DNA from: an uncultured Gammaproteobacteria bacterium
GTDB lineage: Bacteria; Patescibacteriota; Microgenomatia; UBA12405
Direction: 5' to 3'
Length of the DNA: 64,000 nucleotides
Assembly: GCA_964503465.1 (NCBI GenBank)
Contig: CAZCYZ010000001.1
Coordinates: 129,702-193,701 of the forward strand
This document shows positions 221 through 27,366 of this stretch, piece after piece. Each line of letters begins with the position of its first letter. Position 1 is the stretch's first letter. The position numbers and the translations under genes are program-made. The notes beneath the pieces were generated by a model. The model was not told the origin of the DNA. It made no database searches and was given only the letters and a program-made list of their open reading frames with translations.

Positions 221-1132
221 ATGAAAATTATTGCTCTAATCGAGGCCCTACGCCCATTTCAGTGGATAAAAAATCTTAATCTATTTGCTGCTGCTATTCT
301 TAATGGCAAGCTCTTTGATCCACCAGTTTTTATTCAAAGTCTTATTGGTTTCTTGGTTTTTTCAGCACTATCATCTTCGTCATATTTGATCAATGATCTT
401 GTTGATATGGAACGGGACAAACTCCATCCCTTCAAGAAATTTCGTCCTTTAGCCAGGGGTGACGTTTCTCCAATTCAAGCAATCATTGTTTCATTTGGGT
501 TATTTTGTTTTGCCATTTTGGCTTCTCTTTATGTTAGTTTTGGTTTTTTCGTTCTTTCCCTTATTTTTATTATCATGCAATATTCTTATTCATTCGTATT
601 TAAACGTCGAGCCATTTTAGATATCATTGGCATTTCTCTCTTTTTTATCATTCGGGCTTTTGCTGGTGAAATTGCCACTGGTTACCATCTTCCTGTCTGG
701 ACTATGCTAACGGTTATTTTTCTCTCTCTTTTTATTGCCAGTGGTAAGCGTCGAAGTGAGCTGGTTAGAAGTGGCGTTAAAACTAGACAAGCACTCCAGG
801 GTTACGGTAAAAGTCTCCTTAACTTTTACACCACCATGTTTGCCGTCTGTACTTTGGTTACTTATGCTATGTACACTTTCTTTGCTGAACCTATTAGGTT
901 CCAGGGAATAATTCATCATTTCCTGTTAGATAATTTTCCTGCTGCCCTGGATCGTAAGTGGTATATGGTCACGTTGTTGCCGGTAATATTTGGCATCATG
1001 CGTTATGGCCAAATAATTTTTGAAATGGAAGAAGGGGAGAGGCCCGAACGTGTCGTTACCACCGATATTCCCCTGTTGATGTCAGTTCTTACTTGGGGGC
1101 TAATGATGATCACCATTATTTATGTTCTCTAG
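221..1132 (+). CDS. UbiA-family polyprenyl-phosphate transferase, decaprenyl-phosphate 5-phosphoribosyltransferase-like
   Basis: Polytopic membrane protein. Asp-rich motif NDLVDMERDKLHPFKKFRP matches the NDxxDxxxD-R-HP-K-RP signature of UbiA/DPPR-synthase-type prenyltransferases. Confidence 0.55.
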   Translation: MKIIALIEALRPFQWIKNLNLFAAAILNGKLFDPPVFIQSLIGFLVFSALSSSSYLINDLVDMERDKLHPFKKFRPLARGDVSPIQAIIVSFGLFCFAILASLYVSFGFFVLSLIFIIMQYSYSFVFKRRAILDIIGISLFFIIRAFAGEIATGYHLPVWTMLTVIFLSLFIASGKRRSELVRSGVKTRQALQGYGKSLLNFYTTMFAVCTLVTYAMYTFFAEPIRFQGIIHHFLLDNFPAALDRKWYMVTLLPVIFGIMRYGQIIFEMEEGERPERVVTTDIPLLMSVLTWGLMMITIIYVL

Positions 1133-9732: not shown

Positions 9733-10290
9733 ATGAAAAATAACTCTGCTCTCAAGATTCTTTTTCTCTACAACTCAATTTTCGTTTTTGCTAACAATCT
9801 TATTGGCCCACTTTTTGCTCTTTACCTTCAAGGTTTTCATTCCAGTACTGTTACTATTAGCTTTACCTGGGCAGTTTTTGTTTTCTTTACGACCATTTTT
9901 ACTTATCTTTTTTCGAAGTTTGGCGATCGAATTAAAGAACAAGAATATACCCTTATGGCCGGCTTCCTTATTCGTTCCATCGTCTGGTTTCTCTATATTT
10001 TTACTGATTCACTCTCGATGGTGGTTGTGCTTCAAGTTGTTTTGGCCTTGGGGGAAGCCTTGGGTTCTCCAAGTTTTGACACCATCTTGTCTCAACATCT
10101 CGACGATGGTAGTCAAGTAGCCGAATATTCCACCTGGCGAGTCATGGCCAATTTATCAATGGCCCTGGCCACCATCATCGGTGGTTTTGTTGTTGCCAAG
10201 TTTGGTTTTCAGGTTTTATTTGTTGTTATGTCTCTTTTGGGTCTTTTTGCTTTTTTTGGCGTGCTCTCCAAACCCCGGGAGTTGCTGTAA
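9733..10290 (+). CDS. Small ~6-TM membrane protein, half-MFS-like
   Basis: 185 aa hydrophobic ORF starting 1 nt after the previous stop. Weak resemblance to an MFS half-transporter. Confidence 0.3.
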   Translation: MKNNSALKILFLYNSIFVFANNLIGPLFALYLQGFHSSTVTISFTWAVFVFFTTIFTYLFSKFGDRIKEQEYTLMAGFLIRSIVWFLYIFTDSLSMVVVLQVVLALGEALGSPSFDTILSQHLDDGSQVAEYSTWRVMANLSMALATIIGGFVVAKFGFQVLFVVMSLLGLFAFFGVLSKPRELL

Positions 10291-10297
10291 ATCTCCT

Positions 10298-12190
10298 ATG
10301 TCCGATATTCTTGATGGTCTGAACCCTCAGCAAAAAGAAGCTGTGACTCACATTGGTTCACCTCTCCTTGTTCTGGCTGGTGCCGGTTCAGGTAAAACCA
10401 GAGTTTTAACCCATCGAGCGGCATATTTTGTTCACCAAAAACTTGCCAAACCATCTGAAATCTTGCTTTTAACCTTTACTAACAAGGCCGCTGGCGAAAT
10501 GAAAGACCGTATGTCCAAATTGTTAACATCAACAATTAACAAGTCGCCATCCGACAACCTGTTTGCAGGTACCTTTCATTCTTTCTGTTGTTCAGTTCTT
10601 CGTCGGCATGGATCGTATGTTGGCATCCCTCACAACTTTGTTATTTACGATACCGATGATCAGGAAAACACTATTAGTTTAATTCTCAAAGACATTGGTT
10701 TTACCCCCAAAGAATTTAAACCGAGTAGTGTTCTCTATTTTATTGAATCCGCCAAAAACAATTTCCTGACTCCCAAAGAGGCCAGGCAACAAGCTTCCGG
10801 TTTTTGGGCTGAACATGCGGCCAAAATTTATCAACTTTACCAAAACAAGTTGACTGAATTTCAGGCCCTAGACTTTAATGATCTAATTTTTAGGACTATC
10901 GAACTTTTTTATCAAAGTCCAGAAATTCTTGACAAATATCAGGATCAATATCGTTATATTTTAATTGACGAATATCAGGATACTAATCAAACCCAGTACC
11001 TGTTAACCAAACTCTTATCGCTTAAACATCATCAAATTACTGTTGTTGGTGATGCGTCCCAGGCTATTTACGGCTGGCGTGGCGCCGATTATCACAACCT
11101 TGACAGCTTTCTTCGCGATTTTAACGATACCAAGGTTGTTAATCTTGAGGAAAATTATCGTTCGACTCAAACCATCTTGGATGCCGCCAATTCGGTTATC
11201 TCCAAAAATAATTCTCATCCTATTCTTAAACTTTTCACTCTCAAACAATCGAACGATAAGATTAAAATTTTTGAGGCCGAATCCGAAATTGCCGAGGCCG
11301 ATTATCTTTCCGATCGAATTAATTTTTTGGTCAACACCCATCGCATTCCTCATCGGGCTATTGCCGTCCTTTATCGAATGAATGCCCAATCGCGTGTTAT
11401 CGAAGAGTCCTTTCTAAAAAACAACATTCCCTACGTTCTAATTGGTGGCCTTCGTTTTTATGAGCGGGCCGAAATCAAAGATATTCTCGCCATGGTTCGT
11501 TTCGCTGTTAATCATCAAGACCAGGTATCGTATGGCCGACTCACTAAAACATTTGGTAAAAAACGATTGTTTAGTTTTGAAAACTACTTAAAGGATGTCG
11601 ACTTGTCTGACCTTTCCTCGCTTCAAATTCTCGAGTCGTTAGTCCTTAATTCCGGTTACCTTGACCGTTTCGATCCAAAAGATGATGACGATCAACGTCG
11701 AATCGAAAACATTAAGGAACTCAAGTCCGTTGCTACTTCCTTTCCCAAGATTAACGACTTTTTAGAAAACATTGCCTTGGTTCAAGCCGAATATAGTCAG
11801 CAGGAAAAATCCAAGAGAAAGGAAAAGCGCGACGGCATCAGGCTGATGACTCTTCACAGCAGTAAAGGATTAGAGTTTGAAGCGGTTTTTTTGGTCGGTT
11901 TTGAAGAGGGGATATTGCCCCATTCACGAAGCATGGTCGACGATTCCGATATCGAAGAAGAAAGGCGCCTTTGTTATGTTGGTATCACTCGGGCCAAAGA
12001 TTATCTTCACCTCTCCTATGCTTCCCGTCGTCTCTATTTTGGCCGCTCATCATTAAACGAACCTTCCCGTTTCCTGGCCGATATTCCAAACAACTTAATC
12101 GAATTTGACCAGGTTGCTAATATTACTCGAGACTATCGCCATCGTCAGGATTCTGGTGACGATCTTACTTATGATCCAGATATATACTAA
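10298..12190 (+). CDS. uvrD: ATP-dependent DNA helicase UvrD/PcrA family
   Basis: MSDILDGLNPQQKEAV start, Walker A AGAGSGKTRVLT, DEYQDTN, helicase motifs V/VI (TLHSSKGLEFEAVF, YVGITRA). The ORF-track N-terminal extension (10181) is rejected. Confidence 0.85.
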   Translation: MSDILDGLNPQQKEAVTHIGSPLLVLAGAGSGKTRVLTHRAAYFVHQKLAKPSEILLLTFTNKAAGEMKDRMSKLLTSTINKSPSDNLFAGTFHSFCCSVLRRHGSYVGIPHNFVIYDTDDQENTISLILKDIGFTPKEFKPSSVLYFIESAKNNFLTPKEARQQASGFWAEHAAKIYQLYQNKLTEFQALDFNDLIFRTIELFYQSPEILDKYQDQYRYILIDEYQDTNQTQYLLTKLLSLKHHQITVVGDASQAIYGWRGADYHNLDSFLRDFNDTKVVNLEENYRSTQTILDAANSVISKNNSHPILKLFTLKQSNDKIKIFEAESEIAEADYLSDRINFLVNTHRIPHRAIAVLYRMNAQSRVIEESFLKNNIPYVLIGGLRFYERAEIKDILAMVRFAVNHQDQVSYGRLTKTFGKKRLFSFENYLKDVDLSDLSSLQILESLVLNSGYLDRFDPKDDDDQRRIENIKELKSVATSFPKINDFLENIALVQAEYSQQEKSKRKEKRDGIRLMTLHSSKGLEFEAVFLVGFEEGILPHSRSMVDDSDIEEERRLCYVGITRAKDYLHLSYASRRLYFGRSSLNEPSRFLADIPNNLIEFDQVANITRDYRHRQDSGDDLTYDPDIY

Positions 12191-13569: not shown

Positions 13570-14967
13570 ATGAGTGACTTAAACAGACTAACTCTGGTGG
13601 AAGCCCGCCAAGGTTTATTATCAAAAAAGTTTTCTTCTCGTGAACTGATTACTGATTGCTTTTCTCAAATTAAAAAAGTTGAACCTCAATTAAACGCTTT
13701 TGTTTCATTATTCGAAGAAGAATCATTAACCAAAGCCGATAATATCGATCTGTCAAAACCATTGGCTGGTATTCCTGTGGCTGTCAAAGACAATTTTTTG
13801 GTCAAGGACCATCGCACCACCGCTTCAGCCAAGGTCCTTGATAGTTACACTGCTCAATATTCTTCCACTTTTACTCAGCGTCTTGAAGATGCTGGGGCCA
13901 TCATCATCGGTAAAACCAACATGGATGCTTGGGCTCACGGCTCATCTACCGAAACTTCCGATTATGGCCCGACCAAAAATCCTTGGAATACCAATCATCT
14001 ACCCGGCGGTTCCAGTGGTGGCAGTGCTGCAGCCGTTGCTGCTGATGAGTGTACTGTTGCTGTTGGTTCCGAAACTGCCGGCTCGATTCGTCAACCAGCT
14101 GCCTGGTGCGGGGTGGTTGGCTTCAAACCCACCTATGGTCGTTGTTCTCGTTACGGCACTATCGCTATGAAATCCAGCACCGATTCACCTGGACCAATTG
14201 CCAAGACAGTTGACGATGCCGCTTATATCCTTTCGCTTGTTTCTGGTTACGATCCCCACGATGCCACTAGTATCGAAGAAGGCCCGTGGTTAATCCCGCC
14301 ACCTTTAACTTCACTTAAGAATATTAAAATTGGCCTTCCTCTGTCGTATTTTCCTCCGCAAATTCAGCCAGATGTAAAACAGGCAGTTTTAAATTCCACT
14401 GAAATTTTCAAAAAACTAGGTGCTGAAATTGTTGAGCTCCCTGACGTTCTAGATCCCAAATATTCGGTTGCCATCTATACCATTCTTCAACGTTCCGAGG
14501 TTAGTAGCAACCTATCTCGATTTGATGGCATTCGCTACGGTAATGATCGCTCATTTTTTTCCCAAGAGGCCAAACGCCGGATTATGCTTGGAACTTATTC
14601 TCTTTCCGCTGGATATTACGATGCCTATTACACCAAAGCTCAAAAAGCCAGAACCCTCCTCTGTCAGGATTTTGACAAACAGTTTGCCAAAGTTGATGTC
14701 ATTATTGGTCCTACCTCTCCTAGTACTGCTCTGCCTCTTAAGGCCACCGAAGGTCAGGCTATGTTTGGTGAACTCCAAGACATGTTCTTGGAACCATCAA
14801 GTATTGCCGGTCTGGCTGGTATTTCCATTCCTTGTGGTTTTGACACTAACAATCTTCCCATTGGTCTTACTATCGTTGCTCCCCAAAAGCGCGAAGATAT
14901 TGTCTATCAACTGGCCAAAACCTTCGAATCCAACACCGATTATCATCTCCAAAAACCTAAACTATGA
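13570..14967 (+). CDS. gatA: Glutamyl-tRNA(Gln)/Asp-tRNA(Asn) amidotransferase subunit A
   Basis: Amidase signature GGSSGGSAAAVAA and a Ser-cisSer-Lys family. Confidence 0.9.
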   Translation: MSDLNRLTLVEARQGLLSKKFSSRELITDCFSQIKKVEPQLNAFVSLFEEESLTKADNIDLSKPLAGIPVAVKDNFLVKDHRTTASAKVLDSYTAQYSSTFTQRLEDAGAIIIGKTNMDAWAHGSSTETSDYGPTKNPWNTNHLPGGSSGGSAAAVAADECTVAVGSETAGSIRQPAAWCGVVGFKPTYGRCSRYGTIAMKSSTDSPGPIAKTVDDAAYILSLVSGYDPHDATSIEEGPWLIPPPLTSLKNIKIGLPLSYFPPQIQPDVKQAVLNSTEIFKKLGAEIVELPDVLDPKYSVAIYTILQRSEVSSNLSRFDGIRYGNDRSFFSQEAKRRIMLGTYSLSAGYYDAYYTKAQKARTLLCQDFDKQFAKVDVIIGPTSPSTALPLKATEGQAMFGELQDMFLEPSSIAGLAGISIPCGFDTNNLPIGLTIVAPQKREDIVYQLAKTFESNTDYHLQKPKL

Positions 14968-15872
14968 TTACCAGACTTGACTCCACCACTCTTGCCAAAA
15001 TCACTACTCAGGCCGATATGGACGAATTTGTTAATTCCCTTGGTCTGACGACTAATACCGTTATCATTAAGCCCAATTGGGTTGATGGTTGTCTTGGTAC
15101 TCATACCGAAGCAAAAGTTCTTGACCTGTTTTTAGGATCATTAAAAAATAAAAAAATTTATCTTGTCGAAAGTTACACTTTTTGGCGCAATCAAAAATCA
15201 ACCGAAGAAGGGGAGGATTCTTTTTCTTCTTCCGAAGCTCAATTTGATACTGGCCAAAAACATTGGGATTTTTTCAAAGCCGGTGACGACTGGTTTCTAA
15301 GAAACAGTGGTATCGGTAAAGTTATTGGGAAATATGGAATCACCTACATTAATGTCACCAATGAACTTTGGGCTGGCCGGGAATCACCCATCCCTCTGGT
15401 TCCCCAAGTTCTTTACGATCTTCAGGGTTCTGACTTTATTAGTTTTGCCAAACTAAAGGGTGATGGTGATTATGGCGCCACCCTATCTATCAAAAATCTT
15501 TTTGGCCTTTACCCAGACCCGCATCGAATGAAAAAATATCATGGGGAAAATGATGAATTGATAAAAGATTCAATTCTAAAGATTAATCAAACCTATCGGC
15601 CTCTCTTTAAACACTTTTCCATTGTCGAAGGTGTCTATTTTGCCAGTTATGTCCACTGGTCCAAACACATTCATCAAGTATCCCAAGATTTGGGTATTAT
15701 TATTGGTGGTCAAGACGCCCTCCAAGTTGACGACACCGCTCTTAAAATGACCCAAACTCAACCATCCGGATCTCTCAAAACACTTCTGGTTGACTATCAA
15801 AAACTTTTTGGTGGTAACTTCCAGTCTCAAAGTATCCCTTCCGATTACCATGTTGAGTTGTTCAAACTATGA
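14964..15872 (+). CDS. DUF362-family protein embedded in the gatCAB operon
   Basis: VIIKPNWVD... and AKLKGDGDYGATLSIKNLFG motifs. Its start overlaps the gatA stop by 4 nt. Confidence 0.45.
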   Translation: MITRLDSTTLAKITTQADMDEFVNSLGLTTNTVIIKPNWVDGCLGTHTEAKVLDLFLGSLKNKKIYLVESYTFWRNQKSTEEGEDSFSSSEAQFDTGQKHWDFFKAGDDWFLRNSGIGKVIGKYGITYINVTNELWAGRESPIPLVPQVLYDLQGSDFISFAKLKGDGDYGATLSIKNLFGLYPDPHRMKKYHGENDELIKDSILKINQTYRPLFKHFSIVEGVYFASYVHWSKHIHQVSQDLGIIIGGQDALQVDDTALKMTQTQPSGSLKTLLVDYQKLFGGNFQSQSIPSDYHVELFKL

Positions 15873-16159
15873 AAGTCGTTCAATGGTCAATGACTGTTTC
15901 AAACAATTTACATCAAGAATTTATTGAATATTCCCAAAACGTATTAAAACCCACCTGGTTCAAGTTTGGTGCCATCGATTATCGACTTTTTGAAGGAGAA
16001 AATAAGTTTATAGAACAGCTATTCTTCCCAGAAGATTTCAATCCCGAAGAGTTCTTTGCCAAAGTTAAATCCGATCCAAAGGCCAACGAAGTTTCCAAAA
16101 GTTATGAACAACACTTTCAGGCCACCAACATTCAAAAGGAGGTACTAAATCAACTATGA
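15869..16159 (+). CDS. Hypothetical 96-aa protein (possibly ferredoxin-like/ABM-fold), translationally coupled between DUF362 and gatB
   Basis: 4-nt overlaps on both sides. No recognisable motif. Confidence 0.4.
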   Translation: MKVVQWSMTVSNNLHQEFIEYSQNVLKPTWFKFGAIDYRLFEGENKFIEQLFFPEDFNPEEFFAKVKSDPKANEVSKSYEQHFQATNIQKEVLNQL

Positions 16160-17553
16160 CCACCACTCCCATCATCGGACTTGAGGTTCATGTCGAACTA
16201 AAAACCAAATCAAAAATGTTTTGTGGTTGCAATGCCGAGCATTTTCAGCAGCAGCCCAACACCCACACCTGCCCGGTTTGTCTGGGTCTCCCCGGGGCAC
16301 TACCTGTCCCCAACATTATTGCCTGCCAGTGGTGTCTTAAGCTTGGACTGGCCCTCGGTTGCAGTATCAACCAGCATTCTTTTTTTGAGCGTAAAAATTA
16401 TTTTTATCCCGATCTGGCCAAGGGTTATCAAATCTCCCAACTTCAAAAACCGTTTTGCATTAACGGTCAACTAATTATCGATTCCCACTCCGTTCGCATC
16501 AATCGAGTTCACATGGAGGAGGATACTGGTAAATCAGTTCATGTCGGCGACCAGACCCTATTGGATTTTAACCGTTCCGGTGTTCCCTTGGTCGAAATTG
16601 TCTCCGAACCGGATATTAATTCTCCCGAAATCGCTAAAAAATATCTTCAAAAAATTCAGCAAATTGTCCGTTACTTGGGAATTTCTGATGCCGATATTGA
16701 AAAGGGGAGCATGCGTTGCGAACCGACTGTCAATGTCAATATTGATGGCCATTTTACCCCCTTGGTCGAAATTAAAAACGTCGCCTCTCTTACCGGGGTT
16801 CTAAATGCTATCCAATACGAAATTGATCGTCAAATCAAACAATTCGAGACCGATCATCTCGAAAAATCGCCGACCAACAAAACTACCCGTGGTTGGGATG
16901 CTGATAAGCAACAAACCTTTTTGCAACGGGAAAAAGAGGGAAGTGCTGACTATCGCTATTTTCCCGAACCCGATATTCCCCCAGTTGTTTGGTCCGATGC
17001 TGATATTAACACCATCAAATCGACCATTCCCGAACTTCCTGACCAAAAAATTGCCAAATATAAATCCTATGGCCTATCCGATTACGATGCTAATCTTTTG
17101 GCCGAAGACCAGATGTTTGCTGCCACTTTTGAAAAAGTTACCGGTGACCAACCTTCTCCTGAATTTGCAAAGTTTGTAGCTAATTTGTTTATCGGTCCGC
17201 TTAAGGCCATTAATCTTGATCAAGTAAATCCAGTTTATTTCAAAAATCTTTTTGACCACAAGCATGAGTTATCCTCGACGGCCATAAAAGAACTAATCAT
17301 TGAATCACTTTCGTCTAATGTTGACCCTTTAAAAATCGCCGCCGATAAAAATCTCTTTCAGGTCTCCGACACTGATACCATCGAGAAACTTGCCAGGCAA
17401 GTTATCGCTACTAACACCAAGGCAGTTGACGATTATCACAAAAACCCATTGGCCATTGGATTTCTTGTCGGTCAACTAATGAAACTTTCCCAGGGTTCCG
17501 CCAACCCTCAACTGGCCAAGGAAGTACTTGAGAAACTTCTCTCGACTAAGTAA
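16156..17553 (+). CDS. gatB: Asp/Glu-tRNA amidotransferase subunit B
   Basis: IGLEVHVELKTKSKMFCGC...HTCPVCLGLPGALP N-terminus, GatB/YqeY C-terminal domain. Confidence 0.9.
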   Translation: MTTTPIIGLEVHVELKTKSKMFCGCNAEHFQQQPNTHTCPVCLGLPGALPVPNIIACQWCLKLGLALGCSINQHSFFERKNYFYPDLAKGYQISQLQKPFCINGQLIIDSHSVRINRVHMEEDTGKSVHVGDQTLLDFNRSGVPLVEIVSEPDINSPEIAKKYLQKIQQIVRYLGISDADIEKGSMRCEPTVNVNIDGHFTPLVEIKNVASLTGVLNAIQYEIDRQIKQFETDHLEKSPTNKTTRGWDADKQQTFLQREKEGSADYRYFPEPDIPPVVWSDADINTIKSTIPELPDQKIAKYKSYGLSDYDANLLAEDQMFAATFEKVTGDQPSPEFAKFVANLFIGPLKAINLDQVNPVYFKNLFDHKHELSSTAIKELIIESLSSNVDPLKIAADKNLFQVSDTDTIEKLARQVIATNTKAVDDYHKNPLAIGFLVGQLMKLSQGSANPQLAKEVLEKLLSTK

Positions 17554-17555
17554 AT

Positions 17556-17711
17556 ATGATCAAAAAAATTGCTTTGATTGTCCTAATTGTCATGGGCGCC
17601 ATCTTTGCTATTCGTTTGCTTACCCCCGAAGACACCTGGGTTTGCTCGCAGGGCCAATGGATTAAACATGGCAACCCCTCCATCCCCATGCCCTCATCTT
17701 CTTGTCCCTAG
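17556..17711 (+). CDS. Possible 51-aa small membrane protein
   Basis: ATG 3 nt after the gatB stop. MIKKIALIVLIVMGAIFAIRLL TM helix. Below the ORF-track length cutoff. Confidence 0.25.
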   Translation: MIKKIALIVLIVMGAIFAIRLLTPEDTWVCSQGQWIKHGNPSIPMPSSSCP

Positions 17712-18443
17712 TTATTTGCGTTTCACTCGTCTCCCAAGTTCCTTCAATACACCAGCAACCTGTCGATCAAATGTCCGTCTTTCGTTAACAATCTCATATC
17801 CTAAACTTTTTCGGTGAGCCGCTCCGGCTCGTCCAATTCCAGCTATTTCACAGTCAAAAGCCAAAATATCTCCTCGATTTCTCGTGGCCACTTGTCGTAC
17901 GGTTTTTTCACCTCTCTTAGGATTGGCTCTTTCTTCTTCTATTTGCTCCTGAAGTGCTAGTATCCTATCTGCACCCCTAGCTATTTCAGTAATTTCCGGC
18001 CAAAGATCTTTTGCTCCGTCTGGTATAACAATTGTACTTCCATCGGCACTACCACCATCTTGGTACAGATAAATCACACCATTAACGTTTCGTCCATCTC
18101 TTGTTCCCCTAACCATACACCCGATTGTGGTTTGCAACAAATGATTTCCTCTTAGGGGTGGTGGTTTGAATTCAATTACTGCGCGGGGAGTTATTGCGTC
18201 AGATCTTACTGATAATTTCAATCCATCAGGTCCGATCTCGATTTCGTCTTCAACTTCAAATCTTGTCTCAACCCCTCGTAATCCTCTTAGTGGTTTGGGC
18301 AAGTCACCAGACACAATTCTTTTTTTGATTTCCTGATGGGCCTTTATTCCAGCCTTACTCGCTTCTTGGTCTAAATTTTTTGGTGGTCCACCCCGTATTA
18401 CTTCGGCTATCTTACTTGGCGTAATTCTCCTCTCCGCCACCAA
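17712..18443 (-). CDS. Hypothetical Arg/Gly-rich protein with a PD-(D/E)xK nuclease-like motif (VRR-NUC-like: GPDGLKL...AVIEFKPPPLRGNHLLQ)
   Basis: 243-aa minus-strand ORF in an otherwise plus-strand region. There is no plus-strand ORF of 60 aa or more in its interior. Locally elevated GC and Arg/Gly/Ala-rich composition atypical of neighbouring genes. Confidence 0.45.
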   Translation of the reverse strand: MVAERRITPSKIAEVIRGGPPKNLDQEASKAGIKAHQEIKKRIVSGDLPKPLRGLRGVETRFEVEDEIEIGPDGLKLSVRSDAITPRAVIEFKPPPLRGNHLLQTTIGCMVRGTRDGRNVNGVIYLYQDGGSADGSTIVIPDGAKDLWPEITEIARGADRILALQEQIEEERANPKRGEKTVRQVATRNRGDILAFDCEIAGIGRAGAAHRKSLGYEIVNERRTFDRQVAGVLKELGRRVKRK

Positions 18444-18542
18444 ATAACATTCTAATCAAGTACCCCACTTTATCAAGCAGATAATTGTCATCATTGTTAT
18501 CCTATAGTTTCAAAAATACAAAAAAGAGTTATAATCACCCAA

Positions 18543-18809
18543 ATGGAGAAACAAAAAATCAAATATCACGGAGTTGATGCCTGGGGTAATCGTATCCCTA
18601 TTGTTACTGCTACCAAACCGGGTAAAGGCGAAACAATACCTGGAGTTGCCCTAAACCGTTCATCCGCCTCTGTGATCGTTGATGGTAGAGCTATTCAGAT
18701 GCCATTCAGTGAAACCGATGTCCGAATTACTCGAATGCCCAACTGTAAAGGTGCCCAAAGATTTCGAGTTATGCCGGTTAGGGAATCACGTAGTCCCGAT
18801 TTTGAATAA
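18543..18809 (+). CDS. Hypothetical 88-aa protein
   Basis: Divergent from the minus-strand nuclease-like gene and directly upstream of the helicase-nuclease. A -35/-10-like sequence (TTTCAA...TATAAT) lies ~18500-18530. Confidence 0.35.
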   Translation: MEKQKIKYHGVDAWGNRIPIVTATKPGKGETIPGVALNRSSASVIVDGRAIQMPFSETDVRITRMPNCKGAQRFRVMPVRESRSPDFE

Positions 18810-18823
18810 CGCTATACTAGATA

Positions 18824-21800
18824 GTGATCAATAGTTTTGATTCCGAATATCAAAAGCTTAATTCCGACCAAAAACTAGCCGTCGATACTACCGATGGTCC
18901 AGTCATGGTTGTCGCCGGTGCTGGCACTGGCAAAACTCAAACTATTGCTCTCCGCATTGCCAACATCCTCCAAAAGACTCAAATCGGCCCTAGCAACATT
19001 CTCTGTTTAACCTTTACTGACTCGGCCGCTATCAACATGCGCCAGCGTTTGTCATCCATTATTGGCCCCGATGCCTATTCAGTTCGCATCAGCACCTTTC
19101 ATTCGTTTTGTCAGTCGATTATCAAACACCATCCCGAGCATTTTCTTCAGTTTCACTCCGATTCCGAAGCCCTGGACAAAATCGAACAAATTCAAATCAT
19201 TCAATCCTTGATCGATAAACTTCCTCCCAATAGCCCTCTGACCAGCTCCGTCGAAATCTACTATGCCCAAAACCAAATAATTTCGGCCATCGAATCACTT
19301 AAAAAAGAAAGTATTTCTTCATCAGTTCTTGCTGATCTAATCAATCAATCCAGTCAATTCCTTCAATCGGCTGCCAGCTGTTACCAACAACTAAAAACCA
19401 TTCGGGCCGACAAAAAAAATCTTAATCAAATCATCGATATCGTGAATAAGTTAATTAAATTACCCAACATTAATTCCACTTACCAAACCAAAATTTCCTC
19501 ACTTGTCAAAGATCACTTAACTTCAGCCAAAGAAATCAAAACTTCAATTATTTGTTTTTATGAAAACTGCCAAAAAAACCTTCCCAAACAACAATCTCTC
19601 CTTTGGCTGTTTATCGAGTATCAACAACAACTTAGCTCTCGCCACCTCTTTGATTTTGATGACATGATCCTCTCAGTCATCGATCTTTTCAAAAATAAAC
19701 CAGAAATTTTGGCTGAATATCAGGAAAGATTCCAATATATCCTTGTTGATGAGTATCAAGACACAAATTCTTCTCAAAACCAAATTATTGATTTACTTGC
19801 CGGTTCTGATTTCCCTAATGTTTTTGTCGTTGGTGACGACGACCAATCAATTTTCCGCTTTCAGGGAGCTAGCACTGAAAATGTTTATCACTTCTATCTT
19901 CGTTATCACCCCCAACTGGTTGTCCTTCGCAATAATTACCGCAGTCATAGATTAATTTTAGCTTCAAGCCAAACACTTATTAACCGCAATCTCAATCGAA
20001 TTGCTACCAAAATTAGTAATATTGACAAGACTTTGATTGCCTCTCGGGATTACGACCCCGACCCAATCAATTTTTATGTTGCCCAGTCAAACATTGAAGA
20101 AAATTATTGTCTGGCTTCTTCCATTAAAAAACTTACTGATACCGGAGTAGATCCGAACCATATTGCCGTTTTAGTTCGAAATAATGCCGATATTGATGAT
20201 CTCCTGCCAGCATTATCAAGTTTCAATATCAAATACACCAAAGATTTTAGTATCAACATTCTTCTCCAACCGCCAATCATTCAACTTATTGACCTCCTTC
20301 GTTTGCTCTCCAATCCAACTGATTCCATTCTTTTTGGTAAAGTTCTAAATTTTCAGTTCCTAAATTTCCCCGCAATTGACCTTTATCGTCACTTCCACCA
20401 ACAACCAACATCTGACAAGTTTGTCAAACGTCTTGATAGGTTTACTGACCGTCTTGCTAAATTTCAAAAACAAAAGTTAAATCTTCCACCTGACAGACTT
20501 TTCAATCGCCTTATCCGTCGTTTTGGTTACCTAAAATGGGTTCTGCGTTGCCGTAATCTCGAACTCCTAAAACAACTCGACCGACTTTACCAGGAATTTA
20601 AAGTTAACTACACCGACAAAAGGCTGACTTTCGATCAAATAGTCTCCCGCCTTTCAACCCATTTTGATAGCAACCTATCCCTCAATTGTCCACCGCTTTT
20701 GTCCGAGTCGGTTAACTGCGTTCGTCTCATGACTATTCACAAAGCTAAAGGCTTGGAATTTGACCATGTTTTTCTCCCTAAGGCCCTAGCTTCTCGTTGG
20801 GAAGATGCTCGCGGTCGACAGTCAATTCCCCTTCCGCTTGGAATTATTGCCTCTGAAGTTATTGGCCCCAATTATGACCAAGAGCTTGAGGAAAACCGCC
20901 GTCTCTTTTATGTTGCCTTAACCCGGGCTAAAAACCAAATTTATCTCTCCTACACTCAAAATAATCCCGAAGGTCGGGAACTTCTCCCCACTCGTTTTAT
21001 TGCCGAAATTGACCCCAAAAATATTCAGACTTTTCCCACCGACCCCAATATCGAATCGTCCGCCCTAAAGTTACAGTTCTCCATGCCCAACACCAAATTG
21101 TTCTCGACTCAATTGTCCGACTATCTTCGGTGGTACTTTGCCAACAAATACCGCCTCAATATTACCCACCTTAACTCATATCAAAAATGCCCTCTTTGTT
21201 TTTTCTTCAAAACCATTTTAAAAATTCCTCAAGCCAAGACTATACCACTTTCTTATGGCACTTCTGTTCATGGGGCCCTCGCCTATCTTTTTTCAAGCTA
21301 TAAAAGAACCGATTCCTTAATTCCTCTCAATCAATTTCTTAACATTTTTCAAAATAATTTAGTCAGAGAGAATTTACCACTCAAAAATTTTGACGAATTA
21401 CTGACTCGTGGCCGTCAACAGCTAACCGAATATTACCAGCATTATCAATCAAACTTCAGTGGTCGTTGTCTAGTCGAACATGATTTTCGTCCTTATCTGG
21501 CACGGATCGATGATATCCCTATCACTGGTAAGGTTGACAAGATTGAGATTATTTCTGGAAGAAAAGTCAATGTAGTTGATTTTAAAACTGGTAAACCAGA
21601 CAACAAATATCATGAAATTTCTCGGGAAGGGGATTATTTCCGCCAACTTGTCTTTTACAAGATTCTAGCCGATCACAGTCCTGGCTTTAATTATCAGGTT
21701 GTTTCTGGTTCAATTGACTTTATTCAGACCAACTCTCGCAACCAATTTGTCCGTCGTGATTACGACATTACTCCTTCCGACATTTCATCCCTCACTAGCA

Positions 21801-21928
21801 TTATCAAAGATACCTATCAAAAAGTTATCTCTTTAAATTTTTCCCAAAACCCATCCTGCCCCGACCACGACCACCTTCATCATCTTGCTTCCAAATACTT
21901 TTTCACTTGTTCCTCGATCCAGGGGTAA
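18824..21928 (+). CDS. UvrD-like helicase fused to a C-terminal RecB-family (PD-(D/E)xK) nuclease with a Cys cluster (AddA/AddB-like single-chain helicase-nuclease)
   Basis: Walker A VVAGAGTGKTQT, DEYQDTN, TIHKAKGLEFDHVF, YVALTRA helicase motifs. C-terminal nuclease motifs EHDF...DKIEII...VVDFKTGK...YFRQLVFYKIL. Cysteines at CPLC and CPDHDHLHHL...FTC. Confidence 0.8.
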   Translation: MINSFDSEYQKLNSDQKLAVDTTDGPVMVVAGAGTGKTQTIALRIANILQKTQIGPSNILCLTFTDSAAINMRQRLSSIIGPDAYSVRISTFHSFCQSIIKHHPEHFLQFHSDSEALDKIEQIQIIQSLIDKLPPNSPLTSSVEIYYAQNQIISAIESLKKESISSSVLADLINQSSQFLQSAASCYQQLKTIRADKKNLNQIIDIVNKLIKLPNINSTYQTKISSLVKDHLTSAKEIKTSIICFYENCQKNLPKQQSLLWLFIEYQQQLSSRHLFDFDDMILSVIDLFKNKPEILAEYQERFQYILVDEYQDTNSSQNQIIDLLAGSDFPNVFVVGDDDQSIFRFQGASTENVYHFYLRYHPQLVVLRNNYRSHRLILASSQTLINRNLNRIATKISNIDKTLIASRDYDPDPINFYVAQSNIEENYCLASSIKKLTDTGVDPNHIAVLVRNNADIDDLLPALSSFNIKYTKDFSINILLQPPIIQLIDLLRLLSNPTDSILFGKVLNFQFLNFPAIDLYRHFHQQPTSDKFVKRLDRFTDRLAKFQKQKLNLPPDRLFNRLIRRFGYLKWVLRCRNLELLKQLDRLYQEFKVNYTDKRLTFDQIVSRLSTHFDSNLSLNCPPLLSESVNCVRLMTIHKAKGLEFDHVFLPKALASRWEDARGRQSIPLPLGIIASEVIGPNYDQELEENRRLFYVALTRAKNQIYLSYTQNNPEGRELLPTRFIAEIDPKNIQTFPTDPNIESSALKLQFSMPNTKLFSTQLSDYLRWYFANKYRLNITHLNSYQKCPLCFFFKTILKIPQAKTIPLSYGTSVHGALAYLFSSYKRTDSLIPLNQFLNIFQNNLVRENLPLKNFDELLTRGRQQLTEYYQHYQSNFSGRCLVEHDFRPYLARIDDIPITGKVDKIEIISGRKVNVVDFKTGKPDNKYHEISREGDYFRQLVFYKILADHSPGFNYQVVSGSIDFIQTNSRNQFVRRDYDITPSDISSLTSIIKDTYQKVISLNFSQNPSCPDHDHLHHLASKYFFTCSSIQG

Positions 21929-22845
21929 GTTAGCTCTACCCCCCGTTTTAATGGAAATTGAGCTTTCCAGCCAGTAGCATAGATTTTGTCGTTACTAAAA
22001 TTTCGTGATTGAACACCAACCGGCCCCCTAATGTGTTTGATGGTAATATTTTTATTAGCCACCTTGGCAACTATTGCCACTAGTTCGTCAACCGAGACAT
22101 ACTCTGGATTACCAATATTCGTTGGTACCGAAACTTCCGAGTCTACTAACTTTCTTATCCCGTCTACCATATCGTCCACATAAGTGTATGACCTTACCGC
22201 CGTTCCGTCCCCCCAAACTTCTATCTCCCCCGAGTCACCTTTGATTTCGGCCACCTTTCGGCATATTGCCGCCGGGGCTTTTTCTCGTCCCCCTTGCCAA
22301 GTTCCTTCAGGTCCATAACAGTTCTGAAATCTGGCTATCCGTACTTTCATCGAGTATTTTCGCCCATACGCTAGCAACATTCTTTCACTATAAAGCTTTT
22401 CCCATCCATATTCATTATCCGGCTGGGCTGGATAAGCCTGTTCTTCGACCATTTCTGGTTCACCGATTTTCATATCACGATACACACAGACCGAAGATGA
22501 AAAAAAATACTTTCTCACCCCTAGTTTGGCGGCGGAGTCAATCATATTAATATTAATTAAGGCGCTATTTCTCATAATTTCGCATTCGGCTGAGTGGATA
22601 AAGCCCATCCCCCCCATATCTGCCGCTAGCTGATAGACCTCATCAAATCCACCGTCTATGGTTAAAGCTTTAATGCAATTTTCTCTTTCCCTCAAATCTA
22701 ATACTAAGAACTCATCTGCGACTGATTTGGTGAATTCATGATTTTTTATATCCACCCCTCTAACCCAATAACCATCTTTTTTTAGCCTCTTAACCAAATG
22801 TCCGCCAATAAAACCTCCTGCTCCCCCAACCAAAACTTTTTTCAT
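21880..22845 (-). CDS. gme: GDP-mannose 3,5-epimerase-like NAD-dependent epimerase (SDR family)
   Basis: GGAGGFIGGH Rossmann motif, LAADMGGMGFI, YGWEK (YxxxK), GTWQGGREKAPAAICRK, GPVGVQSRNFSN and the C-terminal YPWIEEQ all match GME. Its 3' end convergently overlaps the helicase-nuclease by 49 nt. Confidence 0.75.
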   Translation of the reverse strand: MKKVLVGGAGGFIGGHLVKRLKKDGYWVRGVDIKNHEFTKSVADEFLVLDLRERENCIKALTIDGGFDEVYQLAADMGGMGFIHSAECEIMRNSALININMIDSAAKLGVRKYFFSSSVCVYRDMKIGEPEMVEEQAYPAQPDNEYGWEKLYSERMLLAYGRKYSMKVRIARFQNCYGPEGTWQGGREKAPAAICRKVAEIKGDSGEIEVWGDGTAVRSYTYVDDMVDGIRKLVDSEVSVPTNIGNPEYVSVDELVAIVAKVANKNITIKHIRGPVGVQSRNFSNDKIYATGWKAQFPLKRGVELTYPWIEEQVKKYLEAR

Positions 22846-22962: not shown

Positions 22963-25900
22963 GTGCGTCCATTCAAGTTTTTTGGGATATTGTTTTGCGC
23001 AGTAGCATTGGCCTTCTTGACCATAAGTCCATCTTTTGCTGTTAATCAAGCCACCATCACTTCCCTGACTGTTTCTGACTCAGCTGTTGGTGCTACCAAT
23101 GTTACCTACACTCTTCAGTTTCAATTAGATACCGAAATTACCGCCGACACAGCCAAGTCAATGAATTTTGATCTCAACAGAATGAGTACCAAAAGTACCT
23201 GGGAAGGTGGAGATCAAACATCCAACATGGCCACGGCCACTGGCACCTTTAGCAGTTTTCAATATGACAGTACTGGTAGTGGTAATTGGGTCGATATTGA
23301 CTTTGGCGGCGCTAGTTATTTTCACAAAGAAATTTCAACCGACAATTCACTGTTAATTTGGGGTCTAGGTTATGTCGACAATAACGACATCCATTCGATT
23401 CAAACAACCATTCCTGTCAACAAAACGGTCAAATTAGTTGTTACTGGTGTTACTAACCCCAATAAAGCCGGTGCTTATACTTTTAGTATTGAAAGTGGTT
23501 TAGGACCAGCTAGTGACACCTACTGGTTGTTGCCCCAGGATTCTCTTGCTCGGGACCGAGCTCTGTATGTTGATATCGGCACCTATTGTTTACGGGCCAA
23601 GATCAAAGATCCTACCGGGGCTACTGCCATTGCCAAGGCCGAACTCTATCTTCACAATTCTAACTGGACCATCACTTCTTGGGGCGGTAGAACTTTTGCC
23701 GATGGTGCTGTCTCTTACTACCCAGATGATTTCTGGTACACTGGCGGTCCGGCCCAGGAAACCTGTCCTACTGGCATAATTACCATCGAAGCCAACCCTC
23801 CAGGTGGCGTAAATACTTATGCCAAGGCTGTCGATAAGACACCCACATTACCGGGGGATAAAGACACTTATTACAATACCCCGATTACTATGTCGGCCAT
23901 TCAGCTTCAGGGTAGACTTCATAATCCTGCCGTCTCCTCTGGTCAGTATCACTATATCACCAACTCTAATGTCAGTTTTACTCCTTCCGACTTTAATCCA
24001 ACGGGGTTTAAAAACACTCAATCCGACAACAACGGAATTTTCAGAATTGGCGGTTTAGCCGTTGGAACTACCTACACCGTTGGATTTATGATGCCTTGGG
24101 ATAGTGGTTACGGAGGTATTAATGTCCCCGATTCATTTCAAGTTGTTGTTGATGCTGACGGGAAAGTAAAAACGGTCGCCGTCGGCGGCACTTGCCCTGA
24201 TTTTGCCGTTAATTGTGATTTGGGTGACATTGATTACACTGTCGCTACTAAGACCATCACCGGTACCCTCAAAGACAGTGATGGTAACCCAATAACCAGT
24301 GGTCGTATTCGAGCTTTTAAAGAAATGGGCATGGGCCAAGCCCAGGACGAGGTCGACTCCAACGGTAATTATTCTCTAACTGTCGGTGGCGGTACCTGGG
24401 GATTGCAGCCTGAACCCAATTGGAATCCTAGTAGTCCTCCCGATTGGTCTTATTGTGGTATGTCTAAATTTTTTGTCTTTGCCGGTGATACTACTGTCGA
24501 GACCAAAACTAGTGCCAATAGTAGTGGTCAAACAGACTTTACCGTCAAGAGAACTACTGTCACCGTCACCGGTGATGTCGTTTACCCCAACGGCAATCCA
24601 CTAACCGGCCAGGGTGGAGTTGAAGTTCGATCCAAGGAAGGTTGCGGTACCTTTGCTCAATTGGATATGAATGGTCATTTTTCCACCAAAGTTGCTCCCG
24701 GAACCTACAATGTTATGGTTCAAGTTTGGGATCAAACATACAGTGCTCCGTCTGTTCAAACCATCACCGTCTCTACCAGTAATTACAATGTTGGGACTCT
24801 CACTCTAACCGAAAAGAAAGACACCATTACTGGCCGAGTTTGGAATGATATCGATGGCGACAATACTTACGATTCCGGCGAGGGAATCAGCGGTCAACAG
24901 ATAAATGCCTCTAAAATGTCCAAAAAATTTGATGAATTTGGCGGTCCAGGCAGTGGTCCGATGATGGGTCCTGGCGGTGGTGATTTTAGCGGTACCACTA
25001 GTGGTAACAATGGAGTTTATTCTCTAAAAGTTACTCCGGGTACCTGGATGATTAATCTTATGTCCGACCCAGGGATGATGGGGGGATATTCCGAAAGCAG
25101 CACTAATTATATTTACAACGGCAGTCCGCTTGAAGTCAATGTTACCTCCTCGGCTAATGGTGGCACCTTCCCTGACAATAATTTTAAACTTACTGTTGCC
25201 GACGCCACCATTAAAGGCAAGCTGGTTGATAGTAACGGTACTGCTATTGCTGGTGTTTGGGGTTTTGCTTTTGCTGATACCGGTTCAGGTGGACCAATGA
25301 TGGGTGCTGGCATGGGGGCTCCGATTCAAAATGGTATCTTCACCATCAAGGTTCCTGCCGGCACTTACAACGTCGGCGTCGAATTTCCTCCCGAATCGTC
25401 TGGGTATACTCCCGCCTCGTCAACTGAAACCACTATCACCGCCGGTGAAACCAAATCAATTGATATTACTGTTAAACCCAATAACCGGAGGATAAAAGTT
25501 AACTTCAAAGACACCAACGGTAACCCTATTACCACCCTTTCTCAAGCTAATATTTTTGCCGACAACAGCAGTGGCGGTCATATGTTTAAAATGCTTTATG
25601 GTTCGGATCTGGTTAGCGGATCAACTACTCTTTCTGTTAGCGAGGGCACTTGGAATATTGGCTACTTCATTGATCCGACTACTAACAACTATATGTCCGA
25701 ACCCATGTCCAAGGACAATGGTATTACTGTTACTAGTGTTCATACTGCCGATAATCCGGCTGTTCTTAATATTACTCTTCGTAGTGCCGATTCAACCATT
25801 TCAGGTACTGTCACCGGTCCAACTGGCACTGCCTTGGCTGGTGTTTGGATTTCCACCGACAACCGTAAAGCCTCAGGATTCTCTAGTGGTGGCCCAATGT

Positions 25901-27366
25901 TCATGACTGGCAGTGCCACCGACTCAAACGGTAGTTATTCTATTTCTTTACCAGCCGGTACCTATAAAGTTCAGGCGTTCTTGCCTCCGTCAATGGGCTA
26001 TATTAATCCAGATGGAGTCGAGGTGACAATCAGTCCAAGTAGCCCTGGCGTCGCCAATTTACAGTTTAGTCAATCCGACGCTACTATTACCGGTTCTGTC
26101 TACCTAAACGAGGTTAAAAAAGGTGCCTTTATTTCCGCCTATTCGGACAAGGGTGGTTATAGTGAAACCAATGCTAATAGTGGTGATTATTCTCTCAATG
26201 TCACCAAGGATGACACTTGGTATGTTCGTGCTATGTACGAAACCGGTTCTGATTTTTACCAAAGCACCATTAACAAAGTCATTATGGCTGGTGCATCCAC
26301 CAAAAGCCAAAATCTTACGCTCACCAAAGCCTCATTCACCTTACCTGATTCAGTTTCAACTACCTTTGACTATCAGAATGCTAAAAAAATTAGTCTTAGT
26401 AACGGTTTCAATCTATCTATCCCTGCCGGCGCCATTCCCCCCACTAGTAACGCTACGGGAGATAACATTACTATCACCATTTCGCCTACCTCACAACTTT
26501 CTACCCAAAATAAGGCCATTCCCATTGGTATTGGTTATGAAATTACTGCCACCGATGACTCTGGTAGTCTTATCACCTCCAATTTTAACGACAATGTCAC
26601 CATTACCATTCCTTACACCGCCACCTATCTTGAGGAGGCGCTTGGTTCCAGTGACGAAACCTTGCTTGATAATGGTTATTGGGATACCACCACTTCTACT
26701 TGGAAAGGTATAACCGGTACCACCATTGACACTACTAATAAGACTATTTCCTTCACGGTTAACCACTTTACCACCTTCTCTATCCTCTCCAACAAAGACC
26801 CCAATACTGTTGGTGGCTCATCCGGTAGCAATTCTACTCAAGCTAGTACCAACAGTAACAGCACTCCAAGTTGCAACAGTCAGGTGCCAGGCAGTGCTCC
26901 AACTTTATTCAGAATCGATCGTACCAAAACCACTGCTAAACTTTACTTTGCTCCCTCCAGCGATCCGGTCACTTATTACTATATTGCTTATGGCCACAAG
27001 GTAGGGGATTATCGCTATGGGGCATCTTTTGACCAAGGACATTCAGGGGGTGTACTAACCTACACTATCAAAAGCCTCAAGCCCAATGTTAAATACTATT
27101 TTTCAATCCGTGCCGGTAACGGTTGCATGCCTGGACCATGGTCAAATTGGTTCCCCAACAAAAATGCCAAAGTAACTCCAGTTACTGCCTCGACATCTCT
27201 CAGGGCAAAAAACAATGCTGCGACTACCAACCTACCTCAACCCTCAATTCCCCCGGTGGTCGAAGCTCTCCCTACTTCTACTCCTCCTCCAAAACCACTT
27301 CCTACCCCCACTCCTAAGAAAAACATTTTTCAACAAGGTCTCGAATGGTTGAGGAAAATCATCTAG
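22963..27366 (+). CDS. Giant secreted/surface protein (1467 aa): signal peptide, many carboxypeptidase-regulatory-like/Ig-like beta-sandwich repeats, C-terminal FN3-like domain and Pro/Thr-rich tail
   Basis: GTG start, N-terminal signal MRPFKFFGILFCAVALAFLTISPSFA. Recurrent 'GKLVDSNG.PIAGV...NG.YSL.V.PGTY.V' units and repeated GGPMMG motifs. C-terminal Pro-rich PLPTPTPKK tail. Confidence 0.7.
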   Translation: MRPFKFFGILFCAVALAFLTISPSFAVNQATITSLTVSDSAVGATNVTYTLQFQLDTEITADTAKSMNFDLNRMSTKSTWEGGDQTSNMATATGTFSSFQYDSTGSGNWVDIDFGGASYFHKEISTDNSLLIWGLGYVDNNDIHSIQTTIPVNKTVKLVVTGVTNPNKAGAYTFSIESGLGPASDTYWLLPQDSLARDRALYVDIGTYCLRAKIKDPTGATAIAKAELYLHNSNWTITSWGGRTFADGAVSYYPDDFWYTGGPAQETCPTGIITIEANPPGGVNTYAKAVDKTPTLPGDKDTYYNTPITMSAIQLQGRLHNPAVSSGQYHYITNSNVSFTPSDFNPTGFKNTQSDNNGIFRIGGLAVGTTYTVGFMMPWDSGYGGINVPDSFQVVVDADGKVKTVAVGGTCPDFAVNCDLGDIDYTVATKTITGTLKDSDGNPITSGRIRAFKEMGMGQAQDEVDSNGNYSLTVGGGTWGLQPEPNWNPSSPPDWSYCGMSKFFVFAGDTTVETKTSANSSGQTDFTVKRTTVTVTGDVVYPNGNPLTGQGGVEVRSKEGCGTFAQLDMNGHFSTKVAPGTYNVMVQVWDQTYSAPSVQTITVSTSNYNVGTLTLTEKKDTITGRVWNDIDGDNTYDSGEGISGQQINASKMSKKFDEFGGPGSGPMMGPGGGDFSGTTSGNNGVYSLKVTPGTWMINLMSDPGMMGGYSESSTNYIYNGSPLEVNVTSSANGGTFPDNNFKLTVADATIKGKLVDSNGTAIAGVWGFAFADTGSGGPMMGAGMGAPIQNGIFTIKVPAGTYNVGVEFPPESSGYTPASSTETTITAGETKSIDITVKPNNRRIKVNFKDTNGNPITTLSQANIFADNSSGGHMFKMLYGSDLVSGSTTLSVSEGTWNIGYFIDPTTNNYMSEPMSKDNGITVTSVHTADNPAVLNITLRSADSTISGTVTGPTGTALAGVWISTDNRKASGFSSGGPMFMTGSATDSNGSYSISLPAGTYKVQAFLPPSMGYINPDGVEVTISPSSPGVANLQFSQSDATITGSVYLNEVKKGAFISAYSDKGGYSETNANSGDYSLNVTKDDTWYVRAMYETGSDFYQSTINKVIMAGASTKSQNLTLTKASFTLPDSVSTTFDYQNAKKISLSNGFNLSIPAGAIPPTSNATGDNITITISPTSQLSTQNKAIPIGIGYEITATDDSGSLITSNFNDNVTITIPYTATYLEEALGSSDETLLDNGYWDTTTSTWKGITGTTIDTTNKTISFTVNHFTTFSILSNKDPNTVGGSSGSNSTQASTNSNSTPSCNSQVPGSAPTLFRIDRTKTTAKLYFAPSSDPVTYYYIAYGHKVGDYRYGASFDQGHSGGVLTYTIKSLKPNVKYYFSIRAGNGCMPGPWSNWFPNKNAKVTPVTASTSLRAKNNAATTNLPQPSIPPVVEALPTSTPPPKPLPTPTPKKNIFQQGLEWLRKII

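Follow-up and report, generated by a model that had tools for sequence, protein, structure and literature searches.

A probable stand-alone RecB/Cas4-type PD-(D/E)xK nuclease gene, long resident beside gatB in a Candidatus Shapirobacteria-like genome

Bacteria belonging to the candidate phyla radiation (CPR)/Patescibacteria have tiny genomes, with a reduced and poorly understood DNA-repair toolkit and many unannotated genes. In RecB, Cas4, and MGME1, His, Asp, and Glu ligands hold the metal, and a Lys completes the active site. A four-Cys iron-sulfur (Fe-S) module is absent from MGME1, RecE, and lambda exonuclease. The same module defines Cas4 (PMC5704561). In this study, we analyzed a stretch of 64,000 nucleotides (the window) of contig CAZCYZ010000001.1 from a small-genome bacterium resembling Candidatus Shapirobacteria (CPR/Patescibacteria), and focused on gene X, a minus-strand open reading frame (ORF) located between gatB and a helicase-nuclease gene. 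The original prediction for this locus had described a PD-(D/E)xK-like nuclease on a possibly horizontally acquired segment. Our results indicate that X is probably a native, vertically inherited, and fast-evolving gene whose product is a stand-alone nuclease and belongs, within the PD-(D/E)xK superfamily, to the RecB/Cas4/lambda-exonuclease branch.

Gene X and its parts are arranged as follows.

17712-18443, minus strand: gene X, a 243-codon ORF with the stop codon TAA at 17712-17714
18440, minus strand: GTG start of the public gene call for X (242 amino acids, aa), with an in-frame TTG at 18443
18021-18440, minus strand: predicted nuclease core, residues 1-140, alpha-beta-beta-beta-alpha-beta-beta in the AlphaFold2 (AF2) secondary structure
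18336-18338, 18198-18200, 18171-18173, 18165-18167, and 18132-18134, minus strand: codons of the key residues H35, D81, E90, K92, and Q103, respectively
18225-18227, minus strand: codon of D72, the Asp of a GPDG stretch, not conserved (Asp in 8 of 28 family members)
17715-18020, minus strand: C-terminal part, residues 141-242, with two long helices predicted to be antiparallel (140-172 and 204-238) and a basic tail after them

An AF2 model from an alignment of two sequences was useless (predicted local distance difference test, pLDDT, 41.6), and the 28-sequence family alignment gave a model with a pLDDT of 89.6 and a predicted template modeling score (pTM) of 0.85. The elements of the modeled core follow the order helix 25-44, strands 60-69, 74-83, and 87-92, helix 98-115, and strands 120-127 and 132-139, which contains the alpha-beta-beta-beta-alpha-beta fold of the RecB/Cas4/lambda-exonuclease branch. 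Foldseek searches with this model retrieved RecE (3e-5) and SSO0001 (7e-4) from the PDB and Cas4 proteins of archaeal viruses (5e-6) from BFVD. The predicted fold is of the RecB/Cas4 type and the nuclease residues are kept, but the nearest structures are MGME1, Cas4, RecE, and AdnAB instead of the VRR-NUC or restriction-type enzymes to which X had been likened.

The conserved residues of the X family occupy the positions expected for this branch. Motif I, G31-x3-H35, lies inside helix 25-44, and both residues are conserved in 27 of the 28 family members, as for a metal-ligand His; we take H35 to be equivalent to RecB His956 and to the motif-I His of Cas4. In the model, the invariant D81 (SVRSD, 28/28) stands at the end of strand 2, 8 residues before E90-F-K92 of strand 3, where Glu or Asp at position 90 and K92 are each found in 27 of 28 members, so that the predicted core carries the Asp...(D/E)-x-K arrangement of a PD-(D/E)xK nuclease. 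The original prediction had placed this motif in a GPDG...IEFK stretch with a spacer of 13 residues; E90-x-K92 is indeed conserved, but the spacer is 15 residues, and the invariant Asp is D81 and not D72 of GPDG. In the helix of the Q-h-x-x-Y motif, Q103 is conserved in 25 of 28 members, and the Tyr four residues on is replaced by small residues or by the semi-conserved C108. Additionally, an N-terminal T/S-x-S motif (S9, 26/28) resembles, by eye, the S-x-S/T start of PDDEXK_1 domains in the neighboring helicase-nuclease and in the protein of a compared locus (L003). Family members contain 0-5 Cys with a single conserved Cys column (22/28), and therefore the four-Cys Fe-S module is absent from X. 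The C-terminal half is basic and helical in the AF2 model, as had been anticipated. Its hairpin carries the conserved motifs A157-x2-I160-L161-x2-Q164 and L213-G-x-E-x4-R221, and a low-confidence insert (about residues 175-203) is missing in most family members.

The X family is small. An exhaustive phmmer search against 1.84 billion cluster representatives (E ≤ 1e-3) yielded only 28 proteins or clusters, and a word-indexed search added one homologue with 49% identity; the family alignments contain no conserved stretch of 7-10 residues. So far, the family is limited to Shapirobacteria-like CPR metagenomes. A gatB-based scan of species-representative genomes identified Candidatus Shapirobacteria metagenome-assembled genomes as the nearest named relatives (GatB 68-71% identical), and a scan of species-representative genome contigs with the helicase-nuclease found no relative. 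The ORF of X is not a chance one: homologues are found down to E 1e-22, dN/dS is about 0.1-0.2, and conservation is concentrated on the active-site-like motif set. In particular, dN/dS was 0.12-0.21 overall and about 0.2 against the homologue in L002, a comparison in which dS is saturated. Between the window and the syntenic locus L009, the identity is 71% for GatA, 72% for GatB, 70% for RmuC, and 50% for the helicase, and only 33% for X. X is fast-evolving yet under purifying selection.

The genes next to X in the window are listed below.

16156-17553, plus strand: gatB, convergent with X
17556-17711, plus strand: orf51, a 51-aa ORF starting 2 nt after the gatB stop
18543-18809, plus strand: orf88, an 88-aa ORF divergent from X, 14 nt upstream of the helicase-nuclease start
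18824-21928, plus strand: helicase-nuclease of 1034 aa, a UvrD-type superfamily 1 (SF1) helicase fused to a Cas4-like PDDEXK_1 domain

This layout agrees with the original description of a 243-aa minus-strand ORF amid mostly plus-strand genes, flanked by a 51-aa TM peptide and a divergent 88-aa ORF, and placed just upstream of a RecB-nuclease/UvrD fusion. Among the real genes of the window, about 42 are on the plus strand and only 5, X included, on the minus strand. The fusion was confirmed by Pfam matches to UvrD-helicase (2e-69), UvrD_C (2e-38), and PDDEXK_1 (2e-16). X and orf51 stand tail to tail with zero spacer.

Homologous loci were compared with this arrangement (L-numbers denote compared loci, and L001 is the public annotation of the same contig).

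L002: the 49% identical X homologue starts 30 bp from a divergent helicase whose N-terminus is 89% identical to that of the window
L009: an order shared with the window, gatC-gatA-...-gatB-(two small ORFs)-X (opposite strand)-helicase-nuclease-...-RmuC, with X 33% identical
L007 and L014: X convergent with gatB
L011 and L012: X flanked by folD and glyA, here too encoded on the opposite strand
L003-L006: X 6 bp from a divergent, stand-alone 313-aa PDDEXK_1 protein with four Cys
L015: X adjoining a glycosyltransferase gene
L013: X among genes of no known kind, without phage signal
L017, 6422-7366: slot between gatB and the helicase-nuclease with a HIT-family protein and ORFs of 72-78 aa
L018, 6422-7761, and L019, 6545-7329: the same slot with an opposite-strand HAD-type hydrolase

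X is present in the slot between gatB and the helicase-nuclease in L002, L007, L009, and L014, relatives that share only 27-49% X identity, and the GatB proteins beside the X homologues in L007, L009, and L014 are 72-74% identical to that of the window. The conservation of the slot in these relatives, together with the other genes that fill it in L017-L019, indicates that X is an old resident of one sub-clade and that the slot is plastic at deeper levels. The presence and absence of X at the slot are compatible with an old gain in the sub-clade or with losses, and the slot itself is a local hot spot of gene turnover within conserved synteny. The gatA-gatB junction is variable too: in the window (14964-16159) it holds a DUF362 gene and a 96-aa ORF, in L009 (10851-12105) NUDIX and DUF218 genes and a 51-aa hydrophobic ORF, and in L017 (about 5001) gatA and gatB abut directly.

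The opposite orientation of X, its unusual amino-acid composition, its ORFan neighbor orf88, and the differing slot content between genomes could also be read as signs that the X/orf88 segment is a recently acquired island or a mobile-element remnant. The composition was compared with that of the other genes. X is rich in Arg, Gly, and Ala, as first described (R 11.5% against 3.9% in the comparison, G 10.7% against 6.0%, A 8.2% against 5.8%). Its GC content (0.439) lies within the gene range (mean 0.415 ± 0.027, z = 0.85), and GC at third codon positions (GC3) is low (0.29, z = -2.5). The GC excess resides in codon positions 1 and 2 and thus reflects the amino-acid composition of an Arg/Gly/Ala/Glu-rich protein. 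Therefore, the locally higher GC that had been noted holds as a marginal overall excess but not at third positions, where GC is lower.

Codon usage also differs by strand. At third positions, T or C prevails in plus-strand genes (T 0.40, C 0.26, G 0.12). In the four minus-strand genes besides X, the preference is for A (about 0.33-0.38) or G (about 0.22-0.28), a pattern that X follows (A 0.44, G 0.17). Likewise, the order of Arg codons in X, AGA > CGA > AGG, is that of the other minus-strand genes, whereas plus-strand genes use CGT. The log-likelihood per codon of X is -1.11 under a minus-gene model and -1.39 under a plus-gene model, and the other minus-strand genes behave alike. The score of X on a scale resembling the codon adaptation index (CAI) is low (z = -2.5), which is common to the other minus-strand genes, because it is an orientation effect of the strand-specific synonymous bias. 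X therefore has a codon usage native for its strand and has been in its present orientation long enough to equilibrate.

The strand bias extends over the window. In positions 1-64000, third codon positions of 46 genes have C > G and T > A on the plus strand regardless of gene direction, about 42 of 47 genes lie on this C-rich strand, and the cumulative GC skew drops steadily across the profiled 14-23 kb. The usual rule is a G-rich leading strand, and the gene-rich, C-rich strand of the window runs opposite to it. Owing to this asymmetry, every minus-strand gene appears codon-deviant.

Hallmarks of mobility were likewise absent. A scan for flanking direct repeats of X returned only 13-nt chance repeats, no tRNA genes were found in the window by a tRNA scan, and no integrase or transposase ORFs occur between 14 and 24 kb. 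X, orf88, and orf51 matched no family in PADLOC-DB 2.0 and no PHROG profile, and no X relatives were detected in phage genomes or viral contigs, nor were phage or plasmid-like relatives seen. Together with the native codon usage, the GC within the gene range, and the synteny conserved down to 27% X identity, these results largely refute a recent acquisition of the segment, which we regard as very improbable. X is not a recently imported or mobile island but a long-resident gene of a small-genome Shapirobacteria-like bacterium. The suggestion of a horizontally acquired nuclease, defense gene, or mobile remnant is thus not upheld, and what survives of the island idea is the variability of the slot among Shapirobacteria and the fast evolution of the gene, without foreign composition or mobile hallmarks. 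A free-standing selfish gene of the homing-endonuclease kind was also considered and rejected; in the sub-clade X is inherited with a stable position and orientation, and neither a target nor a duplication signature was seen.

The same fast divergence raises the question of a role in conflict, in which X would act against phages as a solo Cas4-like nuclease, or would join the UvrD-Cas4-like protein in defense, and would be caught in an arms race at a variable hot spot. X diverges far faster than its neighbors in the same genome pair, other genes fill the slot in other Shapirobacteria, and the family is small and patchy. In addition, UvrD-Cas4-like fusions have been found mostly in restriction-modification or Dcm/Vsr contexts, with predicted defense roles (Hudaiberdiev et al., PMC5704561). 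Nevertheless, dN/dS of 0.12-0.21 denotes purifying and not diversifying selection, the PADLOC and viral searches were empty, and the GajB matches of the helicase are generic UvrD similarity with no GajA-like partner seen. The annotated neighbors (about 7.7-31.8 kb) are housekeeping genes, with no methyltransferase, restriction, toxin, or integrase genes among them. Taken together, a defense function for X seems unlikely.

Several observations weigh against the reading of X as a native RecB/Cas4-branch nuclease that works with neighboring DNA-processing genes. No sequence method ties the X family to any known nuclease family, so that the nuclease assignment rests on predicted structure and motif logic. 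X had no match among Pfam, NCBIfam, PHROG, and PADLOC profiles (up to E 1 for Pfam and NCBIfam), nor had orf88 and orf51, and a sequence-profile search of the PDB gave only a spurious coiled-coil match (E 0.33). The PDDEXK_1 profile (PF12705) did not match the window protein and matched one of the 28 family members at E = 0.12. When the X family was compared by hhalign with PDDEXK_1 domains, singly or pooled, no significance was reached (probability <1%; 0.15% against five domains), although the non-significant alignment still pairs D81, E90-x-K92, and Q103 with GKVD, DFK, and RQLVFY of the PDDEXK_1 domains. The partnership with helicases is weak, and distant members lie near folD/glyA, a glycosyltransferase gene, or uncharacterized genes. 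Moreover, the Shapirobacteria genomes of L017, L018, and L019 keep the order PcrA-FemAB-gatA-gatB-[slot]-helicase-nuclease(-RmuC) without X (GatB 59-70%). Finally, a catalytically dead form of X occurs in nature: the orthologues in L007 (542-1156) and L096 (1120-1734) carry G31A, H35K, E90G, K92R, and Q103S, with D81 kept. These copies, from two metagenomes, are full length and divergently adjacent to the same Pif1/RecD-like SF1 helicase, and they share 87% aa identity with a dN/dS of 0.117 at an unsaturated dS of 0.57. Their retention under purifying selection indicates that the X family has a function other than hydrolysis, for example in binding DNA ends or a partner.

The dead form could mean that X works mainly without catalysis, as a subunit of SF1 helicases that is accessory or binds DNA ends. 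It would then be a minimal counterpart to the nuclease-like domains found in RecC or AddB, with a nuclease chemistry that is secondary or dispensable. X is adjacent to three different helicase or nuclease partners, and the long helical hairpin of the model is a plausible interaction module. However, 26 of the 28 family representatives, including the window protein, retain every catalytic residue, the helicase-nuclease persists without X in L017-L019, and several members have no helicase neighbor; we therefore consider a mainly non-catalytic role improbable. A further idea, tentative and of little probability, makes the X family a minimal partner module for SF1 helicases that is specific to CPR. 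In it, a stand-alone Cas4-like domain without Fe-S and with a helical docking hairpin would play the part that AddB, AdnA, or RecC has in larger bacteria, as the second nuclease domain or the domain that guides DNA ends, and the catalytic center would have become dispensable in one lineage.

Considering X as a probable active nuclease, a mechanism may be proposed by analogy with RecB, Cas4, and MGME1. H35, D81, and E90 would hold one Mg2+ or Mn2+ ion, and K92 would activate water or stabilize the transition state. Nearly all structural neighbors act on DNA ends or single-stranded flaps, and for this reason X may be an end-dependent exonuclease or a flap nuclease. The helical hairpin and the basic tail would cover or clamp DNA, mediate oligomerization, or dock a partner. 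X has DNA-processing neighbors of three types, namely the UvrD-PDDEXK_1 (Cas4-like) fusion in the window, L002, and L009, the solo Cas4-like nuclease, and a Pif1/RecD-like SF1 helicase in L007 and L096, which suggests a role in repair or recombination. X would thus serve chromosomal DNA repair or recombination, possibly with adjacent SF1 helicases or nucleases, although this association is not obligatory.

The expression of X would be low, from its own promoter, with a non-ATG start and almost no leader. The putative promoter is located as follows.

18449-18476, minus strand: sigma-70-like promoter match TTGATA-16-TAGAAT (10/12), ending 6-9 nt before the X start codon

This match is at consensus level only, and such matches in the region are not above the shuffle expectation. 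GTG or TTG starts were found in 11 of 12 X family genes (window, L002, L003, L007-L009, L011-L015, and L096). By eye, no obvious Shine-Dalgarno sequence was present in the 110 nt upstream of the X homologue starts, and no shared operator was seen there. The non-ATG starts and the promoter match suggest, at the sequence level, low-level, leaderless, or deliberately weak expression, and low-level leaderless expression would make sense for a nuclease.

The two small ORFs beside X differ in their conservation. orf51 encodes an N-terminal hydrophobic segment and two Cys. A homologue follows gatB in L014 as well (53% identity over 32 aa, with E 9e-10 for a small search), with the shared pattern ...IFAIRL..PEDTWVC....W..HG.P....P..SCP. 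Its codon log-odds (0.253) are like those of in-frame genes, and although it is not called in the public annotation, it is probably a real gene for a small membrane protein. The L014 homologue (728-895, minus strand) has no in-frame ATG, and a nearby ATG lies one base out of frame across an A7 run; either the assembly contains an error in this homopolymer, or the start is non-canonical. On the other hand, orf88 is a strict ORFan whose sole match among 5.8 billion proteins is itself, and the syntenic slots in L002 and L009 lack it. The 72-aa ORF that takes this position in L017 was rejected as a counterpart, with an alignment score below the shuffle mean. The codon log-odds of orf88 (0.318) are typical of in-frame genes, a value reached by only 0.2% of out-of-frame windows, and its ATG has a TATAAT box 10 nt ahead of it. 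The orf88 region had no Rfam match and no unusual RNA fold (z = -1.5). orf88 is probably a young, lineage-specific gene.

Additional features were observed around the locus. The 3' ends of the helicase-nuclease gene and of a convergent gene for an NAD-dependent epimerase (21880-22845, minus strand) overlap by 49 bp (21880-21928), and X and glyA have 4-8 bp in common in L011 and L012. With these overlaps and the zero spacer between X and orf51, there is no space for terminators between convergent genes in these genomes. A 185-aa ORF at 9733-10290 matches only the first half of an MFS_1 transporter, and about 110 bp of it overlap the predicted start of a PcrA-like helicase (10181-12190). The transporter gene may be truncated, or the start of the helicase may have been set wrongly. 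In the interval from the epimerase to RmuC, a secreted or surface protein of 1467 aa is encoded (22963-27366), with CarboxypepD_reg and fn3 matches in the public annotation. It has no counterpart in the L009 arrangement, in which RHH, dUTPase, and a 134-aa ORF are found instead.

These results tie one hypothetical family to a concrete fold and chemistry, those of a probable RecB/Cas4-type nuclease without an Fe-S cluster. The recurrent adjacency to helicases and nucleases, together with a naturally inactivated and selected variant, provides a testable handle on DNA-end processing in CPR bacteria. The locus is also a cautionary case, in which a strong strand-specific codon bias makes an opposite-strand gene seem compositionally foreign without being so.

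Among known systems, MGME1 (PDB 5zyu and 5zyt), one of the nearest structures, is a eukaryotic, mitochondrial enzyme with only 11% identity to X, and sequence homology between the two is not detectable; X adds a C-terminal helical hairpin of about 100 residues and lacks the Tyr of Q-h-x-x-Y. Cas4 (SSO0001, PDB 4ic1; PF01930/TIGR00372) and the solo Cas4 proteins of CPR bacteria differ from X in having the four-Cys Fe-S module; X matches neither Cas4 profile in Pfam or NCBIfam up to E 1, and the annotation of the surrounding proteins brought up no CRISPR or cas gene. The PDDEXK_1 domains (PF12705) of AddB, AdnAB, and UvrD-Cas4-like fusions, including the 1034-aa neighbor, have no statistically detectable profile link to X, which in comparison has a shorter hairpin between the Asp and E-x-K (8 residues), carries no helicase fusion, and lacks a Cys cluster. 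Unlike RecE, lambda exonuclease, and YqaJ, X has no phage context and no RecT, Bet, or Erf annealase gene nearby, and it shows no sequence similarity to them. VRR-NUC (PF08774) and type II restriction-like enzymes share with X the superfamily-level core and the D...(D/E)xK logic, but neither profiles nor the closest structural neighbors place X among them. X is therefore best filed as a new, previously unannotated family within the known PD-(D/E)xK superfamily and not as a new kind of system.

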